Shown here piece after piece: positions 9,072-58,432 of a DNA stretch of 64,000 bases. The position numbers and the translations under genes were made by a program. Source of the stretch: Candidatus Aminicenantes bacterium. Its GTDB lineage: Bacteria; Acidobacteriota; Aminicenantia; UBA2199. The notes under the pieces are model-generated. The model had not been told where the DNA came from. It made no database searches and worked only from the letters and a program-made list of their open reading frames with translations. Numbering within the stretch: the stretch's first letter is position 1; the number at the start of each line of letters is the position of its first letter. The DNA is taken from positions 621,710 through 685,709 of the forward strand of contig CAVXAL010000002.1 in the NCBI GenBank assembly GCA_963759765.1, in the 5' to 3' direction.

Positions 9072-9455
9072 CTACGGCTTAATATGAAGAACCGAGCTCT
9101 CCGAAAGGTGTATTGCCTTCAGCAGTATTTCTGATTCATTAGATGGCCATCCAATAATATTAGTATGACGTTTTGGGATATTATCTGGATCCAATTTTAA
9201 GCAACAACTATAAATTGAAGATGCGGTTATATCAGCGCGTGCTTTTAAACTACTTGGTCTATTTTTCTCAACTTGAACTCCTATTAACCATATTGCGCTT
9301 TCAGACAAGTCGTATATTCTAAAAACTGACAATTTCTTATTTTGAGGCGGCATGAAGGCACGATGCTTAACACAGTTATTTTCTGAACTAAAATCTTTTT
9401 TTGAAAAAAGAAATCTTGATAGTTTTTCAGATGCTTTGATTTGATGATTATTCAA
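9072..9455 (-). CDS. hypothetical protein (island gene 3, 127 aa)
   Basis: AT-rich ORF; start 1 nt after stop of gene 2; no family recognised (..KHRAFMPPQNKKLSVFRIYDLSESAIWLIG..RHTNIIGWP..). Confidence 0.5.
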   Translation of the reverse strand: MNNHQIKASEKLSRFLFSKKDFSSENNCVKHRAFMPPQNKKLSVFRIYDLSESAIWLIGVQVEKNRPSSLKARADITASSIYSCCLKLDPDNIPKRHTNIIGWPSNESEILLKAIHLSESSVLHIKP

Positions 9456-9456
9456 A

Positions 9457-9942
9457 TTAAAATCCCAACCTTTTAAAATTTTCTATTATTACTGGTGGCA
9501 ATGCGTTTTCGAAATATTCATTCCCATGAATCTGATTCCCCCCAAATATTCCCGCATATTTAATAATTTTTGTATTCCCAATATTTATTATAAAAATTCT
9601 ATTTCTGTCCTTCCTCCATTCAAATCCCACATCTCCATTTGGTTCGATACAAATTTCAGGGAATGGAATAAAGGATGGTATAAGATTTAGAAATTTTTTA
9701 GCTTCAAAGTAAGCATCAATGGATAAGGGTTTGGCTCCCTCTCCATCCCAATCTTCATTCTTACATTCAATTTGTAACTTTTTTAATTCATAAAGGATTT
9801 GATTAAGAAACAATTCGTTAGATGTCTTGTTCTTCCAAATTGGTTTATTTTCATAAATCTTTTCATCTTTGGAGCTTGTACAACTTTGATAACTATTGAT
9901 ATTATAGCATATAGGTGTGGAGCATATAGCTGGGGTGCTCAT
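9457..9942 (-). CDS. hypothetical protein (island gene 2, 161 aa)
   Basis: AT-rich ORF; its ATG overlaps stop of gene 1 (ATGA); Cys-rich N-terminus CSTPICYNINSYQSC; no family recognised. Confidence 0.5.
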   Translation of the reverse strand: MSTPAICSTPICYNINSYQSCTSSKDEKIYENKPIWKNKTSNELFLNQILYELKKLQIECKNEDWDGEGAKPLSIDAYFEAKKFLNLIPSFIPFPEICIEPNGDVGFEWRKDRNRIFIINIGNTKIIKYAGIFGGNQIHGNEYFENALPPVIIENFKRLGF

Positions 9943-10685
9943 ATAAATAACTCCTTTAATTTTTCTGTTATTAAAGAGAAAAAAATTCTATTTTTGAAAT
10001 TTCGTAACCTTTCAAATAATTCCCAAGCTTCGTTATTTTCAAAAAATTCTTTATGTTTAAATACATCTATATCCAGCATTATTGGACAATACCTTGGATC
10101 AACAATCTGTTCGAAGACTTGAGTGATAATTGCTGTAATTCCGGTATCTGGTTCTTCAATTACAACTTTATTAAAGAAACTATTTACTCCTTGTGGCAAT
10201 TCTTTTGGAATAATCGGCGCTGCTGTTAAATACTCATTAAAATCAAGCAATGGTTGCGGATATAAAGGAATACTAATTTTATTTATATACCTAACTGCAA
10301 CTCTTATGATTTCAGGATTTACTAAATCTCTATATATCTTCCAAATTCTATAAGCCTCATCTCTAAGATTCTCCCAGCATTCATAAGGGTTTAACCGATT
10401 AAAAGTAAAGCCATCTATTCTTGTTTGGACAATCTGCTTTTTATCAATAGTTCTAAACCAATACCCTTTTAAAGTTTCTGAACTTGTCGATAAAGGTTTT
10501 AAATCTTTTTTTAACTCAAGCTTACTTTCAAATTCAATTGCCTCTGTTTTTTCTGGATATTGATTTTTTATTTTTTCGTGAATAGAAAGAAATTGTTTCA
10601 CATCAAAATCACTTTTCAACTTTGTCTTTAAATCAATTAATGCTTCATAAATCGGAGCATTATTAAGATGAGCTATCTCTGCCAC
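9939..10685 (-). CDS. hypothetical protein (island gene 1, 248 aa), possibly TIGR04255-like uncharacterised family
   Basis: GTG start at 10685 with GAGGAAAA SD. N-terminal LNNAPIYEALIDL and central RVAVRYINKISIP resemble my recollection of TIGR04255 proteins; unverified. Confidence 0.5.
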   Translation of the reverse strand: MAEIAHLNNAPIYEALIDLKTKLKSDFDVKQFLSIHEKIKNQYPEKTEAIEFESKLELKKDLKPLSTSSETLKGYWFRTIDKKQIVQTRIDGFTFNRLNPYECWENLRDEAYRIWKIYRDLVNPEIIRVAVRYINKISIPLYPQPLLDFNEYLTAAPIIPKELPQGVNSFFNKVVIEEPDTGITAIITQVFEQIVDPRYCPIMLDIDVFKHKEFFENNEAWELFERLRNFKNRIFFSLITEKLKELFI

Positions 10686-20085: not shown

Positions 20086-21204
20086 CAGTTCACCATGCCG
20101 TTTTTGCTTTCCGTCTGGACGTTCTCCTTGGCTTTTTCGCTCTCGCGCAGCTCCTTGAACAGTTCCTTTTCCCGGCGGGTCAGCCGACCGGGGGTCTTCA
20201 CCTGGATGAGGATCAGCAGATCGCCGCGTCCCCAGCGGTTGACCTGCTTGAAACCCTTGCCCTTGAGGCGGATGATCTGGCCGCTCTGGGTTTCGGGAGG
20301 GACATGGATCTTTTCCGTGCCGTTGAAGGTGCTGATCTTGATGTCGTCGCCCAGGGCCGCCTGGGCAAAGGAGATATCCAGCGGATAGATCAGGTCGTCA
20401 TCCTGGCGTTTGAATACGGGATCCTCTTGGACGTGCACTTCCAGGTAGAGATCGCCGGGGCGACCCCCCTGCACCCCCTCTTCGCCTTCACCCACCACGC
20501 GCAGGCGGTTGCCCGTGTCTGCACCTGCCGGGATATTCACCTTGAGCTTCTTTTCTTCTTTGACCCGGCCGCTGCCCCGGCAGCGGCTGCAGGGATGGGT
20601 GATCAGCCGGCCGCTGCCTCGGCAGAGGGGGCAGGTGCTGGCGATGGAAAAGAAGCCCTGGGAACGGCGCACGCTGCCCGTGCCGCCGCACTGGCGGCAG
20701 GTTTCTAATTTTTGGCCAGGCTCGCTGCCGGAGCCGCTGCACCGGTCGCAATTTTTCTCGCGTTCCGCTCTGATTTCCTTTTCCACGCCCTGGTAGGCTT
20801 CGGCCAGAGTGAGCTGCACCTCCTGCATCAGGTCCTGACCCGGGTGCGACCGCTGGCCCTGGCGGCGGCCGGAAAAGAAGGAGTTAAAGCCGAACAGGTC
20901 ACTCAGGATGTCGCTGAAGTCGGAGAAGATAGAGTCCGAGAAGAAGCTGGGATCGAAGCGGCCGCTGCCACCACCGGCGCGCAGCCCTGCAAAACCGTAC
21001 TGGTCGTAAATTTGCCGCTTTTCCGGATTGCCCAGCACCGAATAGGCCTCGGAGGCCTCCTTGAATTTCTCTTCGGCAGCCGGGGTCCTCGCGGTTGCGG
21101 TCGGGGTGGTATTGGAGCGCCCGCTGGCGGTAGGCTTTCTTGATGTCGGTCGGGCTGGCGTTGCGGGGAACGCCGAGAATCTGGTAATAATCCCGTTTGG
21201 CCAT
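20085..21204 (-). pseudogene. dnaJ: molecular chaperone DnaJ with one frameshift near 21085 (J-domain separated from Zn-finger/CTD)
   Basis: J-domain ORF 20899..21204 (DYYQILGV...HPDRN) and body ORF 20085..21038 (CxxCxGxG x4) are colinear in adjacent frames; shift in a C/G run around gaccccggctgcc. Confidence 0.8.
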
Positions 21205-21213
21205 GGCTCGGTC

Positions 21214-35758: not shown

Positions 35759-36793
35759 TTAACTGTCTCGATCTTGTTGCATGGTCTCCCAGGTCTTTTT
35801 GAAGATGTCCGGGGAATCCAGATGGTAGGGGCATTTCTCCACGCAGGAGCGGCAGGCGACGCAGTCCTTGAAGCTTTTATTCAGGGCATTCAGCCGTTCC
35901 CAGACCCAATCCTTTAGTTCGTAGAGGAAATAGTAGTTCTTCAGCACGTGCAGGAAAGCGATGGGCAGGCCCTGGGGGCAGGGCATGCAGTATTCGCAGC
36001 GGCGGCAGAAATTCTCACCCAGCCGTTCCTTTTCCCGTTCCAGGTGTTTCCGCTCGGAAGCGGTCAGGGGAGTCAGGTGCTGCAGTGCAGCCAGGTTGCG
36101 GCGGATCTGGGTGAGGGAATTCATACCCGGGATGGCCACCTCGATGCCGCTGCTGAAAATGAAACGGAAGTTGAGGGCGATTTCGCGGATGTTGCCGCCG
36201 CCGATCGGTTTCATGGCGATGGTGCCGATGTGCTGGCGACGGGCATGGGGGAGGAGCTCTTCGGCGGCCGCGCTTTCGATGTGGTTAAAGGGAACTTGGA
36301 TGGTGGCAAACGCAAAGGCCTGCAAGGCCTTGAGCACGATCCAGGGTTTGTGGCCGGAAAGTCCGATATGCCGGATTTTACCACGCTCCTGGGCCTTGAC
36401 CATGGCGGACAGCGCGCCGCCCGGCGCCAGCACTCTGTCCAATTCGGCCTCGCTGGCCACGTTGTGACACTGGTAAATATCAATGCAATCGGTTTGCAGC
36501 TGGCGCAGGCTGGTCTCGATGTCCCTTTCCACCTGGCCAGCGTCGCGGCTGAGTGTCTTGCTGGCGATGACCACCTGACCGCGGTGGCGGGAAAGGACCC
36601 GACCCAGCTTCAGCTCACTGTCGGTATAAACGCGGGCGCTGTCGAAAAAATTGATGCCCATCTCGACGGCGCGTTCCAGCAGCCGGTCGCTGGCGCGCAG
36701 AGAGAGCCGCTGGATGGGAATGCCGCCCATGCCCATGCGGCAGACCTGCAACCCGGTGCGCCCCAGCATGATCGGCGTGTTTGCCTTGGCCAT
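35759..36793 (-). CDS. aldo/keto reductase with C-terminal 4Fe-4S ferredoxin-type cysteine cluster
   Basis: AKR barrel motifs (GMGGIP, FFDSARVY, IGLSGH); C-terminal CRRCEYCMPCP...CVACRSCVEKCP; start at MAKANTP to avoid overlap with maf. Confidence 0.75.
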   Translation of the reverse strand: MAKANTPIMLGRTGLQVCRMGMGGIPIQRLSLRASDRLLERAVEMGINFFDSARVYTDSELKLGRVLSRHRGQVVIASKTLSRDAGQVERDIETSLRQLQTDCIDIYQCHNVASEAELDRVLAPGGALSAMVKAQERGKIRHIGLSGHKPWIVLKALQAFAFATIQVPFNHIESAAAEELLPHARRQHIGTIAMKPIGGGNIREIALNFRFIFSSGIEVAIPGMNSLTQIRRNLAALQHLTPLTASERKHLEREKERLGENFCRRCEYCMPCPQGLPIAFLHVLKNYYFLYELKDWVWERLNALNKSFKDCVACRSCVEKCPYHLDSPDIFKKTWETMQQDRDS

Positions 36794-36803
36794 GTTCAGA
36801 ACA

Positions 36804-37379
36804 TCACGACGAAAAAAGGGGCAGTCGCAACCGTTCTGCCATGCGGTAGAACAGGTTGAGGGGAAAGCCCACGACATTGAAAAAGCACCCGTCGATCCTT
36901 TCCACGAACAGGGCCGCCCGGCCCTGGATGGCGTAGGCGCCCGCCTTGTCCAACACCGACTCGTGGTCCAGGTAAGAACGGATCTCGCTGTCTTTCAGCG
37001 CTCTGAAATAGACGGTGGTGCGCTCAATTTCAAAATGAGTTTCCCCCCGATGCATCAGGGCGATGCCGGTCCACACCTCGTGGCATCGGCCCGAAAGCCG
37101 GCGCAGCATGGCCAACGCTTCTTGCGGGTCGCGCGGCTTACCCAACACCTGCTGGTCGACCCGCACGATGGTGTCGGCGCTGATGATCAGCGAGGAGAAA
37201 TGACGGCTCTGGTAGACGTTGATCCCTTTGGCGATCGTGATCCGTTGCACGAATTTTTCCGTGGTTTCGCCGGTACGGGGCGTTTCGGCGATATCGGGGA
37301 TAATGACCTGGGGATCCAGGCCCACCAATTTGAGCAGTTCCCTGCGGCGGGGCGAGCCGGAGGCGAGGATGACATTCAT
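36804..37379 (-). CDS. maf: Maf family nucleoside triphosphate pyrophosphatase
   Basis: ILASGSPRRRELL, SADTIV, AYAIQG blocks. Confidence 0.8.
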   Translation of the reverse strand: MNVILASGSPRRRELLKLVGLDPQVIIPDIAETPRTGETTEKFVQRITIAKGINVYQSRHFSSLIISADTIVRVDQQVLGKPRDPQEALAMLRRLSGRCHEVWTGIALMHRGETHFEIERTTVYFRALKDSEIRSYLDHESVLDKAGAYAIQGRAALFVERIDGCFFNVVGFPLNLFYRMAERLRLPLFSS

Positions 37380-37819
37380 CGATTGAAGAAGCGGCGAATT
37401 TTCTTCGCGTAGGTGGGGGCCAGGCGCAACCGCTCGCCGCGGCCGATGAATTCCTTTAGCTCCGTCAGGGAGCAGATTCGGTGGTTTTGGTATATCTTGA
37501 AAACCGTTTTAGGACCGATGCCCTTGATTTGGGACAGTTCATACAGGCTCTCGGGCAGTTCCTGCAACTGGCGGGTCAGGGCTTTGATCTCGCCCAGGAT
37601 GATCAGGTCCTCGATCTTTTTGGCGATGATCTTGCCGATGCCGGAAATCTGGGTCAAGTCCTGCCCGCTGAGCAGAAGCTCTTCGACGGACTGGGGGTGT
37701 TTGCTGACGCAGCGGGCCGCCTTGCGGTAGGCATTGATCTTGAACTGGTTTTCGTTTTTGATGGCCAGGAAAAAGGAGAGTTTGTCCAGCGCTTGGGCTA
37801 TTTCCTGATTGTTCATCAT
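37376..37819 (-). CDS. standalone PolX N-terminal-like helix-hairpin-helix protein
   Basis: 8-kDa-domain-like NQEIAQALDKLSFFLAIKNENQFKINAYRKAA followed by GIGKIIAKKI and GIGPKTVFKI HhH motifs; 147 aa, no polymerase palm. Confidence 0.55.
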   Translation of the reverse strand: MMNNQEIAQALDKLSFFLAIKNENQFKINAYRKAARCVSKHPQSVEELLLSGQDLTQISGIGKIIAKKIEDLIILGEIKALTRQLQELPESLYELSQIKGIGPKTVFKIYQNHRICSLTELKEFIGRGERLRLAPTYAKKIRRFFNR

Positions 37820-37860
37820 GCACCCGCGCTATCATAGCAGAATCATCGGTAAATGTAAAT

Positions 37861-37889
37861 TTGACTTTGCGGCCTATCTCCGTTACAAT
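37861..37889 (+). promoter_or_regulatory. consensus sigma70 promoter TTGACT-17-TACAAT, TSS predicted ~37896 at a GTG codon (leaderless?)
   Basis: ttgact ttgcggcctatctccgt tacaat gcggcc gtg. Confidence 0.4.
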
Positions 37890-37895
37890 GCGGCC

Positions 37896-38480
37896 GTGTT
37901 CAAGATCGCGTTTTCCGGCCTTCCCGCCTGCGGCAAGACGGCGGTGCTCGCCGAGGTAAAGAAGATCCTGGCCCTCAAGGCCCCGGTGGCCGAGGTGGCG
38001 GACATCTGCCGGAGCAACCCCTATGACATCGATCAGAAGTCGGGTTTTGTCTCGCAATTTTTTTTCATGACCAATCAGGTCAACGAAGAGAATATCGTGG
38101 CCGCCAGCAATCCCGAGATCCTGCTCTGCGATCGGTCGGTTCTCGACCAGTGGGTCTATTGGCAGAAATTTCGCGCCGCCGCTCCAGCCAACGGCTCCTT
38201 GCTGGAGAAGGAACAACTGCTGGAGCATCTCTACCGCTTCTGGATCAAGACCTATACCCTGATCTTTCATATCCGCGCCGACGTCAAGATCCTGCGCGGC
38301 CGCAAGACGCCCAACCGTTTCAAGAACATGGGCGTCCAGGAACTGATGGCGATGGAGAGGTTGTTTCTCCAGACCATTCAGGAGGACGGGTTGCCGGCGC
38401 TGGACATCTGGAATCAAGGCTCGGTGGATGAAGCGGCCCAGCAAGCGGTGGCGGAAATATCTAGCCGGAACCTGATCTGA
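37896..38480 (+). CDS. P-loop NTPase, deoxynucleoside kinase-like
   Basis: GLPACGKT Walker A, LCDRS and IRADVKILRGRKTPNRF LID-like region; start ambiguous between ATG 37809 (within promoter) and GTG 37896 at predicted TSS. Confidence 0.55.
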   Translation: MFKIAFSGLPACGKTAVLAEVKKILALKAPVAEVADICRSNPYDIDQKSGFVSQFFFMTNQVNEENIVAASNPEILLCDRSVLDQWVYWQKFRAAAPANGSLLEKEQLLEHLYRFWIKTYTLIFHIRADVKILRGRKTPNRFKNMGVQELMAMERLFLQTIQEDGLPALDIWNQGSVDEAAQQAVAEISSRNLI

Positions 38481-38484
38481 ACGC

Positions 38485-39282
38485 ATGGGCCGCGGAGGCG
38501 TGCTGCGGGTCAGGCTGGCGGGTTTCAATGTCGACGCCGATACCCTGAAGCGTTGCCAGCAGCGGGTGCGGAGCCCGCTGACGCCGGAAACGCTGAGCGC
38601 CGCTTATGCCCGCATCAGCCGCAGCCCGCTGGATATCGTGCGGCTGCGCCGCAACGCCCGGCGCGATGTGGCCCGCGCCCGCGCCTCCAACCGGACGATC
38701 ATCTTCGACATGGGGCACCATTCGGTGGCTGAGCACGCGGTATTCAATTTCGACATCATGGCTGTGTCACGGCTGGCCCTGGAGGAAATCGAACAATTCC
38801 GGCTCGCCTCATACACCGAGAAGTCCCAGCGCTACGTAACCCTGGCAGGGGATTTTGTCGTTCCTGGGGAAATCCGGGAGCGTGGCGACCGCCGCTTATT
38901 TGTAGCCGCGGTCGAGCGGCAGAACGAATTTTACCGCCAGGCCCTGGCTCGGTTGCTGGAGCGAGGGAAGAATTCCTCGGATCTGAGCGAACGGCAACTC
39001 GAGGGCCAGGCCAAGGAGGATGCCCGCTATATCCTCTCTCTGGCCACCGCCGGCCAGGTGGGCATGACCCTCAACGCCCGCACCCTGGAACACCTGTTCC
39101 GGCGTTTCCGTGCCAGCCGGCGGCAGGAGGTGCGCCGCCTGGGTGAAAAACTATTCGCTCTGGTGCTGCCCATCGCCCCGTCGCTGATTCTCTTTCCCGA
39201 GCCGTCGGCCTTTGAACTGGACGTGCATGCTGTCCTCGAGGAGAAACTGGCCTCCCGGGTCCCGGCAAAAGGACCCGGTTGA
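38485..39282 (+). CDS. ThyX-like (FAD-dependent thymidylate synthase family) protein A with degenerate signature
   Basis: GHHSVAEHAVFNFDI and ...FRLASYTEKSQRYV align to the ThyX signature region RHRxxSxxxxSxRY but RHR is replaced by FRL. Confidence 0.6.
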   Translation: MGRGGVLRVRLAGFNVDADTLKRCQQRVRSPLTPETLSAAYARISRSPLDIVRLRRNARRDVARARASNRTIIFDMGHHSVAEHAVFNFDIMAVSRLALEEIEQFRLASYTEKSQRYVTLAGDFVVPGEIRERGDRRLFVAAVERQNEFYRQALARLLERGKNSSDLSERQLEGQAKEDARYILSLATAGQVGMTLNARTLEHLFRRFRASRRQEVRRLGEKLFALVLPIAPSLILFPEPSAFELDVHAVLEEKLASRVPAKGPG

Positions 39283-39950
39283 GCGCCGCGCGCGTGACCG
39301 TGGAATGCGTCGGCCAGGACGATGACCGGATCCTGGCGTCGTTTCTGGCCTGCTCCAGGGCCATGCCCCTGGCCCGGGCCCTGGCCGCCGTCCGGAGGCT
39401 GTCTGCCGCTGCCAAAAAGGAAATTTTCCGGGCCGCCTTCCGCCGCATGGAATTTTTCGACGCGCCGCCGCGCGAGTTTGAGATGGCGGAGGTGACGGTT
39501 CAGGCCGTCATCAGCTCCTCCTGTTTTGCCCAGCTCAAACGCCATCGCCTGGCCACGCTGCTGGTTGGCCCCTACAGCCCGCGCTGGGGCGTTACCGTGC
39601 CGCCGGCGCTGCGCTGGGCCGGACTGGAAAAGGAGTTCCGGCGGGTCATCGCTGAGACGGAAAAGATATTTTTTCAATTCAAAGGAAAATACGGCGGGGC
39701 GGCCGATTACCTCCTGACCAACGCCCACCGCCGGCCGGTGTTGCTGAAAATGAACCTGCGCGAGCTCTATCATTTCATCCGCCTGCGCGACGATGACAAC
39801 GCCCAGTGGGATATCCGCCAACTGGCGGCCACCATCGGCCGGCAAGTGAAAAAACAGCTGCCGCTTTCCAGCTTGCTGCTCTGCGGCAAAAGCCAGTTTG
39901 TCCGGGAATTCCGCAAGATCTACCAGCGCGAACCGGCATTCAAGATTTAG
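39279..39950 (+). CDS. ThyX-like protein B with differently degenerate signature
   Basis: TTG start overlapping stop of A (TTGA); CFAQLKRHRLATLLVGPYSPRWG keeps RHR but lacks SxxSxRY; C-terminal NLRELYHFIRLRDDDNAQWDIRQLA matches ThyX helix. Confidence 0.6.
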   Translation: MSAARVTVECVGQDDDRILASFLACSRAMPLARALAAVRRLSAAAKKEIFRAAFRRMEFFDAPPREFEMAEVTVQAVISSSCFAQLKRHRLATLLVGPYSPRWGVTVPPALRWAGLEKEFRRVIAETEKIFFQFKGKYGGAADYLLTNAHRRPVLLKMNLRELYHFIRLRDDDNAQWDIRQLAATIGRQVKKQLPLSSLLLCGKSQFVREFRKIYQREPAFKI

Positions 39951-40012
39951 ACGGCGACCGGCGCCGGGCCGCGGTTGACGGTACCCGGTAAATGTGATAT
40001 TTTGGCTCTGCC

Positions 40013-40640: not shown

Positions 40641-41600
40641 ATGGAACGGAAGACGGTGATGAGCGGCATGCGGCCCACCGGTGCCCTGCACCTGGGCCAC
40701 TGGGAGGGCGCGCTCAAAAGCTGGCTGCAGCTGCAGCAGACACAGCCGACTGCTACTTTTCCATCGTCGACTGGCACGCCCTGACCACCGAATACCAGGA
40801 TCCCCAGCACATCCGGCAGAACATCCGCGAAGTTCTGCTGGACTGGCTGAGCGCGGGCATCGACCCGGAACAGAGCGTCATCTACCTGCAATCGGCGGTC
40901 AAGGAGATCGCCGAGCTGTTCCTGCTGCTGGGCATGATGACGCCCCTGGGCTGGCTGGAGCGGGTGCCCACCTTCAAGGAGCAGCAGGCGCAGTTGCAAG
41001 ACCGCGACCTGAACACCTACGGTTTTCTCGGCTACCCCCTGCTGCATGACCGTGGACATCGTCATCATGAAGGCCGAACGGTGCCGGTGGGCGAGGATCA
41101 GGTGTTCCATCTGGAACTGGCGCGAGAGATCGTCCGCCGTTTCAATACCTTTTTCGGCGCCTATTTCCCCGAGCCGCAGGAGTTTCTCACTCCCATCCCC
41201 AAACTCCCCGGTCTGGACGGCCGCAAAATGAGCAAGAGTTACAACAATGCCATCTATCTGAGCGACAGTGCCGCGACCGTGACCGACAAGATCAACCCCA
41301 TGGTGACCGACGTCCGCCGCAAGCGGCGCAGCGATCCCGGCGTGCCCCAGGATTGCCCGGTATTCGCCCTGCAGCAGGCCTTCTCCAGCGCCGAGGAGGT
41401 CGCCGCCATCGACCGCGATTGCCGCACGCGCGGGCATCGGCTGCCTGGACTGCAAGAAGATCGTCATCCGCCAATATCAATGAATTTCTCGAACCGTTCC
41501 GCCAGCGGCGCGCCCGTTACACCCAGGCGAATCTGGACGAGATTCTGGAAGCCGGAAACCGCCAGGCCCGCCAGCGGGCCGGCCAGACCATGGCCGACGT
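40641..41600 (+). pseudogene. trpS: tryptophan--tRNA ligase with at least five frameshifts
   Basis: Fragments MSGMRPTGALHLGHWEGAL / ADCYFSIVDWHALTTEY... / GYPLL-MTVDIVIMKAER-VPVGEDQVFHLEL / KMSKS / CRTAGIGCLDCKK / INEFLEPFRQRRARY found in alternating frames; shifts ~40742, ~41040, ~41085, ~41440-41480. Confidence 0.75.
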
Positions 41601-41615
41601 GCGTCGTTTCTTTTG

Positions 41616-42371
41616 AACCTGTGATGGAAGCCGAGCGGTTACCAGGTACAGCACCGACTATTTCGAGGGGCCGCTCGACCTGTTGCTGCACCTGATCCGC
41701 AAGAACAAGATGAACATCCTGGAGATCCGCCTCTCGCAGATCACCACCGAATATCTCTCTTATCTCGAACACCTTCAGGGCATCAATCCCTCGCGGGAGA
41801 GCGATTTTCTGATGACCGCCGCCACCCTGATTTACATCAAGTCGCGGTCGCTGCTGCCCCGGCCTGAAGAACCTGGCCGACGAGTCGCCTGAGAAGCAGC
41901 TGATCCGCACACCTGATCGAGTACGAGAAGATCCAGAAAATTTCGGAGAATGCTGCAGGAAATGGAATACACCGAGCTGCTGCTCTGGCGGCGGGAAGAG
42001 ATCGGCGAGAACTTCGACAACCGCGAATACATGCTCTGAAAGAGGTGTCGGCTTTTCAACTGGCCGAAATCTTTTTCGCCATGGTGCGCAAGAAGGAGGA
42101 AGAGCAGTTTCTTTACATTTCTTCCAAGCACTATTCGATTGCCGGCAAGCGGCAGGAGATCCTGGCGCTGCTGGAGGAGAGCGGCTATCTGGATTTCAGC
42201 GATTACGTGGCCAAGCGGGATTCGATCGAAGAGATCGTGGTGAGTTTTTTCACTATCCTGGAGATGGTCAAACGCCACCTGCTGATCGCCATTCAAAAAG
42301 AGCTGTTTGGACGCATCCAGCTCTGGAAGCTGGACCGGCTGGAAGCGCAACTGCGGCGGGGGAAAGCGTGA
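41616..42371 (+). pseudogene. scpA: segregation and condensation protein A with several frameshifts
   Basis: YFEGPLDLLLHLIRKNKMNILEI (41683 ORF) and C-terminal SAFQLAEIFFAMV... (42045 ORF) in different frames; intervening region has stops in all frames. Confidence 0.7.
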
Positions 42372-56060: not shown

Positions 56061-58395
<2,335 letters not shown>

Positions 58396-58432
58396 TTAGC
58401 CAAACCGCCAGGATTAGTCAAACCGTTGCCGG

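Follow-up and report, generated by a model that had tools for sequence, protein, structure and literature searches.

Do two neighbouring reading frames, each with only part of the ThyX active site, encode an enzyme for a new substrate, or are they a known type of thymidylate synthase seen in two pieces? The question is raised by a locus in a 64,000-nucleotide stretch of DNA from a Candidatus Aminicenantes bacterium (assembly GCA_963759765.1, contig CAVXAL010000002.1, positions 621,710 to 685,709 of the forward strand), hereafter referred to as the window. Three open reading frames (ORFs) on the same strand occupy 37.8-39.95 kb of it: a gene for a P-loop protein resembling deoxynucleoside kinases (dNKs), followed by two ThyX-like frames, ORF A and ORF B (Table 1). 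An earlier sequence-only reading saw in them an operon of three genes, in which the two ThyX-like products could form a hetero-oligomer with a remodelled nucleotide-binding site and might act, with a dedicated kinase, on a different nucleotide. Comparison with related proteins indicates that A and B correspond to the N and C domains of a domain-duplicated ThyX that is normally a single chain, here cut in its linker, with a probability of about 0.7, by an assembly error. The locus is then probably an operon of two genes, the kinase-like gene and one thymidylate synthase gene of the domain-duplicated type, and not of three. The product is likely to be an ordinary synthase of deoxythymidine monophosphate (dTMP), organized as a pseudo-heterotetramer, rather than an enzyme for a new substrate.

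The packing of the ORFs is as tight as the sequence-only reading described. The stop codon of the kinase-like gene is separated from the start of A by 4 nucleotides, and A and B overlap by the 4 nucleotides TTGA (GGTTGAGC), with B lying in the -1 frame relative to A. As also noted at that time, neither thyA nor a canonical thyX is found elsewhere within the 64-kb window.

Table 1. Features of the kinase-thyX locus (positions in the window; aa, amino acids; E, expectation value).
Feature	Position	Strand	Basis
Sigma-70-type promoter, TTGACT-17-TACAAT	37861..37889	+	Pattern scan; 10/12 positions match
dNK/Tmk-fold P-loop kinase-like gene, 194 aa	37896..38480	+	Pfam AAA_28, E 5.5e-10
ThyX N-type domain, ORF A, 265 aa	38485..39282	+	Pfam Thy1, E 1.4e-35; matches N half of fused proteins
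Inter-domain linker / frame-switch zone	39216..39282	+	Three-frame reading
ThyX C-type domain, ORF B, 223 aa from TTG	39279..39950	+	Pfam Thy1, E 1e-22; matches C half of fused proteins

ORFs A and B correspond to one two-domain protein

Both ORFs belong to the Thy1 family, scoring 123 bits (A) and 81 bits (B) against a Pfam cut-off of 24.8. Against the TIGR02170 thyX equivalog model, which has a cut-off of 87.9 bits, both fall below the threshold, with 84.4 bits for A and 57.3 bits for B. Most homologues of A have about 460 amino acids, are named FAD-dependent thymidylate synthase, and come from Aminicenantes, Omnitrophota, WOR-1, WOR-3, Cloacimonadota, Margulisbacteria, and others. The N half of these proteins has the motif FRLxSYTEKSQRY, and the C half has LKRHRMAT. 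A and B together are collinear across the whole alignment with 22 such fused proteins, each with two Thy1 domains per chain. Single-chain proteins with two Thy1 domains are about 460-540 amino acids long, and nearly all relatives of the window's pair have a chain of about 490. The fused relatives score 121-156 bits in TIGR02170, above the cut-off, which explains both the database name and the sub-threshold scores of the two halves.

The fused form is the norm in near and distant relatives. A scan of GTDB, in which each species is represented by one genome, gave at least 584 matching stretches. The match lies in a single frame in each of the best 80, which were examined, and a crude ORF call returned a continuous ORF of 429-539 amino acids in 76 of these 80. 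A metagenome scan seeded with ORF A yielded 53 closer loci; with four further loci (L001-L004) added, there are 47 loci with both domains. Fusion is seen in 44 of the 47, including all metagenome-scan contigs that are 58-65% identical to ORF A. The sequence-only reading had itself named a single gene split by an indel, in a lineage where fusion is the norm, as the outcome that would overturn it. Fusion is indeed the norm, and an indel is probably what separates A from B, one base being enough to restore the fusion. The claim of two tandem genes is therefore not upheld in that form, since the two frames equal one fused gene in nearly all relatives and the window is rich in frameshifts.

An AlphaFold2 (AF2) model of a fused relative (mean predicted local distance difference test score, pLDDT, 79.9) contains two ThyX folds. 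Confidence is low in residues 13-73, which make up the N-terminal third of the N domain, and in the active-site loop (108-113). Solved ThyX structures are the only structure matches of this model, with a template-modelling (TM) score of about 0.65 per domain, and all of the matched library chains are single-domain ThyX of about 190-220 residues. The chlamydial ThyX (about 529 amino acids) may also be of the two-domain type.

Domain-duplicated ThyX is already present in databases and in the literature, and it appears to be biochemically and structurally uncharacterised. Valas and Bourne (2009) reported that Chloroflexi other than Dehalococcoides have only the domain-duplicated ThyX, that it occurs in 'a few other species' as well, and that it 'has not been characterized' (PMC3224940). 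That these Chloroflexi are reported to have only this enzyme supports a bona fide thymidylate synthase role. The Chloroflexi enzyme is annotated as ThyX and has two Thy1 domains per chain (PMC3224940). It may belong to the same subfamily as the proteins of Omnitrophota, Aminicenantes, and WOR-1; the window differs from it in that the two domains lie in separate frames.

Active-site residues are divided between the two domains

The ThyX motif RHRxxSxxxxSxR is not complete in either domain. Aligned to ThyX of Mycobacterium tuberculosis (IRHRHFSYSQLSQRY), ORF A reads EQFRLASYTEKSQRY, with RHR lost and SxxxxSQRY kept. ORF B reads LKRHRLATLLVGPYSPRW, with RHR kept and S..SxRY lost. Over the motif itself, A has QFRLASYTEKSQRY (RH lost) and B has RHRLATLLVGPYSPRW (S..SxR lost), such that the motif is complete only when both domains are combined. 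The C-terminal part of B aligns to solved ThyX structures and keeps the LR...AQWEI block. The complementary degeneration that the sequence-only reading described is upheld by this alignment, together with the Thy1 matches of both ORFs.

The same division is found throughout the family. The numbering of Thermotoga maritima ThyX was mapped onto 81 two-domain proteins, the window's included. ORF A keeps S30, H53, E58, H59, E86, S88, Q89, R90, Y91, E144, R147, N163, R165, and R174, all of which, along with R80, are invariant in the N domains of the 81 proteins. It has lost Q75, R78, and H79, as have the N domains of the set. ORF B keeps E58, Q75, R78, H79, R80, N163, R165, L173, R174, Q180, and W181. 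These are likewise invariant in the C domains, except for L173, which is nearly always present. B has lost H53, E86, S88, R90, and R147, which the C domains of the set also do not have. As a result, each of H53, Q75, R78, E86, S88, R90, Y91, R147, and R174 is invariant in either the N or the C domain of all 81 proteins. A and B both retain all family-invariant residues, and neither contains an internal stop.

In T. maritima ThyX, the active site lies between three monomers: H53 is on 'monomer-3', R78 faces flavin N1/C2=O, the loop 86-97 bears E86, S88, R90, and Y91, and S30 is on the folate loop (PMC11940539). In PBCV-1 ThyX, monomer A supplies Q75 and R182 (which corresponds to R174), and monomer B supplies S88 and Q89 (PMC3498832). 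The residue sets of the N and C domains match the sets that different monomers contribute in canonical ThyX; thus, the split in conservation follows the split between monomers. Read from the alignments, the composite site keeps all canonical residues for flavin adenine dinucleotide (FAD) and deoxyuridine monophosphate (dUMP), and these residues are predicted to converge in space.

Based on this pattern, we propose the following arrangement. Two N-C chains (or an A2B2 assembly) would bring four Thy1 domains together in a pseudo-D2 'tetramer' with two complete sites. To each of these sites, a C domain would contribute the FAD-N1/dUMP arginine set (Q75, R78-H79-R80, and R174), one N domain the active-site loop (E86, S88, R90, and Y91, plus R147), and a second N domain the folate- and flavin-stacking His53 with Ser30. 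Under simple D2 symmetry, with the R78 role filled by the C domain and the loop and H53 roles by N domains, there would be two sites of the composition C+N+N' and two degenerate sites of the composition N+C+C'. The reaction would be that of an ordinary ThyX, in which dUMP, methylenetetrahydrofolate (CH2-THF), and NADPH yield dTMP. The hetero-oligomer envisaged in the sequence-only reading fits in so far as complementary units would share interface sites; its remodelled nucleotide site does not, because all canonical dUMP and FAD contacts are kept. Among the evidence gathered, nothing points to an altered substrate pocket or a new substrate.

The canonical homotetrameric enzymes (T. maritima TM0449, M. 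tuberculosis, PBCV-1, and H. pylori) share the Thy1 fold with both halves of the A+B pair. The pair lacks none of their residues for catalysis, FAD, and dUMP, and in the canonical enzyme, too, sites are built from several Thy1 units. In contrast to the four identical units of the canonical enzyme, the Thy1 units here are of two non-identical kinds, each with a part of RHRxxSxxxxSxR, and two complete sites are predicted per four domains instead of four. There is no solved structure of the two-domain form among the structure-library matches.

The junction of A and B

In the window assembly, no single ORF contains both Thy1 domains. The frame of B is open from 39216 and the frame of A stops at 39280-39282, and one extra base anywhere in these 67 nucleotides joins A and B. 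For example, an additional A in the A4 run at 39267-39270 gives an ORF of 488 amino acids. The linker repaired in this manner has 58 residues, compared with 56 by the same measure in the fused relative L085.

Frameshifts are present in other genes of the window. The gene for TrpRS (40650-41613) has to be read in frames 3/2/3/1, that for ScpA (41644-42338) contains at least three shifts, the J-domain of DnaJ (about 21040-21210) lies in another frame than the rest (one shift), and the gene for GDP-mannose 4,6-dehydratase (57048-58400) has at least five shifts. The shifts are patchy, and many are within 1.5-3 kb of the A/B junction. In the syntenic relatives L002 and L004, the genes that are frameshifted in the window are intact. 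As the shifts hit essential or ordinary single-copy genes, they are taken to be assembly indels. The window assembly is noisy, being probably derived from long reads, and the ORF boundaries in it are unreliable.

An independent Logan contig from the same strain (L138, run ERR10755944) is 99.97% identical to the window over 35992-39203. It stops at 39203, 13 nucleotides short of the frame-switch zone, as expected of a de Bruijn contig at a place where reads disagree. In this contig, the aldo-keto reductase gene is disrupted by a separate 1-nucleotide deletion at window position 36613. Exact look-ups with A, with B from either of two alternative starts, and with the M50 peptidase encoded next downstream brought up no independent assembly that spans the junction, L138 being the only independent contig.

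Linker splits are also seen in other error-prone assemblies, namely L003 (several shifts), L004 (at an A7 run), and L139 (in which the kinase-like gene is frameshifted as well). None of these three has a usable start codon before the first strand of the C domain. The break in L004 (6770-6800) falls on CC-A-AAA-AAA-CG, which is an A7 homopolymer and, in the frame of A, a formal X_XXY_YYZ slippery heptamer. A -1 slip there would lead directly into the C domain; the heptamer is probably an error site, and it could support slippage. Programmed -1 frameshifting as a general mechanism was rejected, because no slippery site is present in the window at 39216-39282 and the fused relatives need none. 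Nor does a homopolymer hot spot by itself explain where the break lies, since homopolymers are not enriched in the linker of the window relative to the remainder of the gene (weighted share 6%). L140, a candidate for a stand-alone C domain, was discarded because its ORF is truncated by the contig end.

The kinase-like gene and its promoter

The first gene of the locus was correctly described in the sequence-only reading as a P-loop, dNK-like gene. A longer ORF that starts at TTG 37809 is unlikely to be real; the start at 37896 was placed by alignment of 21 relatives, and it is GTG in the window compared with ATG at the same position in the relatives. A profile of 21 homologues compared with solved structures finds deoxynucleoside kinases as best matches, over the full length (8puu, E 1.9e-4; 2jas, E 4e-4). 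The AF2 model of the protein (pLDDT 87.9) has its best fold matches in the deoxyadenosine kinases (dAK) of Giardia and M. mycoides, deoxycytidine kinase (dCK), Dm-dNK, and Tmk, with TM scores of 0.66-0.77. dAK and dCK are at the top (0.70-0.77).

The protein shares with the dNK/Tmk superfamily (M. mycoides dAK 2jas, Giardia dAK 8puu, human dCK, and Tmk), besides the fold, the P-loop GxxxxGKT (GLPACGKT in the window) and a conserved DRS motif (CDRS in the window) at the position of ERS in dNKs and DRY in Tmk. In contrast to the superfamily, with which its identity is only 13-18%, the family has no conserved arginine-rich LID, R136 being the only invariant arginine there. The catalytic glutamate of dNKs is not clearly conserved. 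The Pfam dNK model (PF01712) is matched at E <= 0.1 by three of the 21 aligned members (best E 1.6e-6), while the window protein matches AAA_28 instead, above that family's cut-off. The family comprises 106 database matches, which pipelines name variously AAA family ATPase, dA/dC kinase, or thymidylate kinase. 'dNK-like' is a fair label for the protein, which is a candidate member of the dNK family.

The pairing of this gene with thyX is limited to one clade. In 32 close loci, it lies immediately upstream of the two-domain thyX, whereas it was absent from all 80 distant loci searched by tblastn and a profile hidden Markov model. The pairing is thus a feature of this clade rather than of the enzyme type as a whole. 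A role of the kinase as a general partner of two-domain ThyX was rejected on the same count. The kinase-like partner probably acts on a nucleoside or nucleotide of the thymidine pathway; it may feed dUMP or deoxythymidine salvage, or it may phosphorylate dTMP.

One sub-clade (L111:1765-2352, L125:2281-2865, and L129:2284-2868) differs from the dNK/Tmk superfamily in having lost the Walker-A lysine (GSGVNA for GSGKT) and the aspartate of the DRS motif, which has become NRS. The kinase-like gene still adjoins thyX in these three loci. The loss suggests a non-catalytic role for the lysine-less proteins, for example, in binding or regulation.

The consensus promoter proposed in the sequence-only reading has stood up well. 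Four promoter-like sites are found in the 3-kb region, compared with 0.8 expected from shuffled sequences, and TTGAC[TA]-17-TAnAAT is conserved before the kinase-like gene in 29 of 30 relatives. The -10 element ends 5-7 nucleotides before the ATG in the relatives and 6 nucleotides before the start codon in the window; the kinase-thyX mRNA is therefore expected to be leaderless or nearly so. Further promoter-like sites are located at 37859-37831 (-) and 39975-40003 (+), and both end 9-11 nucleotides before start codons. The latter site precedes the next gene, that of the M50 peptidase, and the transcription unit is therefore taken to end at 39950.

Alternative explanations

An indel error of a noisy long-read assembly is probably the cause of the split between A and B, and several observations weigh against this explanation and against the two-domain scheme as a whole. 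TTG 39279, which overlaps the stop codon of A, is a plausible start for B: AGGA lies upstream at a 5-nucleotide spacing, and the beta1 strand of the C domain is encoded complete downstream. In L002 (3700-3712), an in-frame TAG stands between the domains (…GEKP* LVQWPENGDD…), with GTG two codons downstream and GGAG upstream, on a contig whose remaining genes are all intact. L002 is the best candidate for a natural split, so that a split would be real or tolerated at least once. Five of about seven disruptions fall within the linker, a stretch of about 5-6% of the gene. Such enrichment is not expected from random sequencing error unless there is an assembly hot spot, for example, one due to strain-level indel variation. 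The source genome's annotated protein set, too, lists A (265 amino acids) and B (223 amino acids) separately. As regards the enzyme itself, the assignment of every residue to one of three monomers is a prediction, the monomer that supplies R147 is suggested by the conservation pattern only, and we found in the literature no biochemical data on any two-domain ThyX, the passage in PMC3224940 being the sole relevant one. If the split were genuine, A and B would be made as two polypeptides, translation of B being coupled to that of A by the TTGA overlap and the AGGA ribosome-binding site, and they would assemble as a true A2B2 heterotetramer that has the same pair of composite sites. We regard such a tolerated break in the linker as doubtful, though well worth keeping in mind, given the predominance of fusion among the close relatives, the many indel errors around the junction, the three splits that have no start codon for B and occur in error-prone assemblies, and the independent contig that ends just before the frame-switch zone. 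A fuller version, in which this lineage, like probably L002, has a genuine break that divides the catalytic residues between two subunits, and the A2B2 ThyX is co-transcribed with a dNK-like binding or regulating partner that is a pseudo-kinase in some relatives, appears somewhat less likely again. A decaying pseudogene, in which the frameshift is real and the function is lost, would account for the frameshift and for the other broken genes of the window. It is the least probable of the alternatives: those other genes include essential single-copy ones (TrpRS, DnaJ, and ScpA), which makes error far likelier than genome-wide decay, and A and B are free of internal stops with every family-invariant residue in place.

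The inference of a dTMP synthase is independent of whether the split is real. It competes with the proposal that the Thy1 enzyme has been neofunctionalised to act on another nucleotide (e.g., as a methylase or hydroxymethylase of UMP, dCMP, or a modified base), with the kinase as its dedicated partner. That neither domain alone has an intact ThyX motif agrees with such a proposal, as do the tight linkage of a dNK-like gene under a conserved promoter in one clade and the presence nearby of a gene for Maf, a member of a nucleotide pyrophosphatase family. We nevertheless consider a new substrate very unlikely. At every canonical dUMP, FAD, or catalytic position, one of the two domains is invariant across the 81 proteins, and the score of the fused protein (121-156 bits) exceeds the curated cut-off of the thyX equivalog model (87.9), which tells against the novel pathway suggested in the sequence-only reading. 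Moreover, the enzyme type occurs without the kinase in hundreds of species of many phyla, and it is reported to be the sole thymidylate synthase of most Chloroflexi (PMC3224940).

Implications for annotation and enzymology

With A and B read as the two domains of one ThyX, the finding is largely explained. What remains of interest is the proposed half-of-sites architecture and the kinase-like partner, in some cases a pseudo-kinase, with its conserved promoter. For annotation, a pair of 'ThyX-like' ORFs that score below threshold in a noisy long-read assembly are to be read as one thymidylate synthase gene. When they are misread as two genes, the genome seems to be without dTMP synthesis or to have a novel pathway. 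Double-domain ThyX is very widespread in uncultivated phyla (Omnitrophota, Aminicenantes, Elusimicrobiota, WOR-1, WOR-3, and Cloacimonadota), with the catalytic residues cleanly divided between the domains. If its architecture is as proposed, it would be a natural half-of-sites enzyme for asking what number of sites, and which contacts between subunits, the chemistry requires. An A2B2 split, if true, would be the natural counterpart of the experiments in which mutants were mixed to locate the active site of ThyX. The clade-specific kinase-like partner and its strictly conserved leaderless promoter provide a small new lead in thymidine nucleotide metabolism.

Neighbouring genes and other features of the window

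A divergent operon lies upstream of the locus, at 35759-37819 (-). It encodes a 147-amino-acid HHH_8/HhH protein (37376-37819), Maf (36804-37379), and an aldo-keto reductase with Fe-S motifs, and it is syntenic in L001, L002, L004, L138, and L139. Maf enzymes are dTTP/UTP pyrophosphatases; the neighbourhood therefore has a theme of thymidine nucleotides and DNA repair. In 14 of the distant loci, the position divergently upstream of the fused thyX is occupied instead by a full-length PolX (HHH_8, pol-beta thumb, and PHP; 575 amino acids). Among the 80 distant loci, the neighbours of the fused gene are weakly conserved: PolX in 14, RtcB in 11, TyrRS in 10, and PurN in 9.

Elsewhere in the window, three consecutive ORFs of 127, 161, and 248 amino acids are found at 9072-10685 (-), and none of them has a match in Pfam. 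The GC content at their third codon positions is 0.20-0.27, compared with about 0.65-0.85 for the genes of the genome, and they probably represent a horizontally acquired island.

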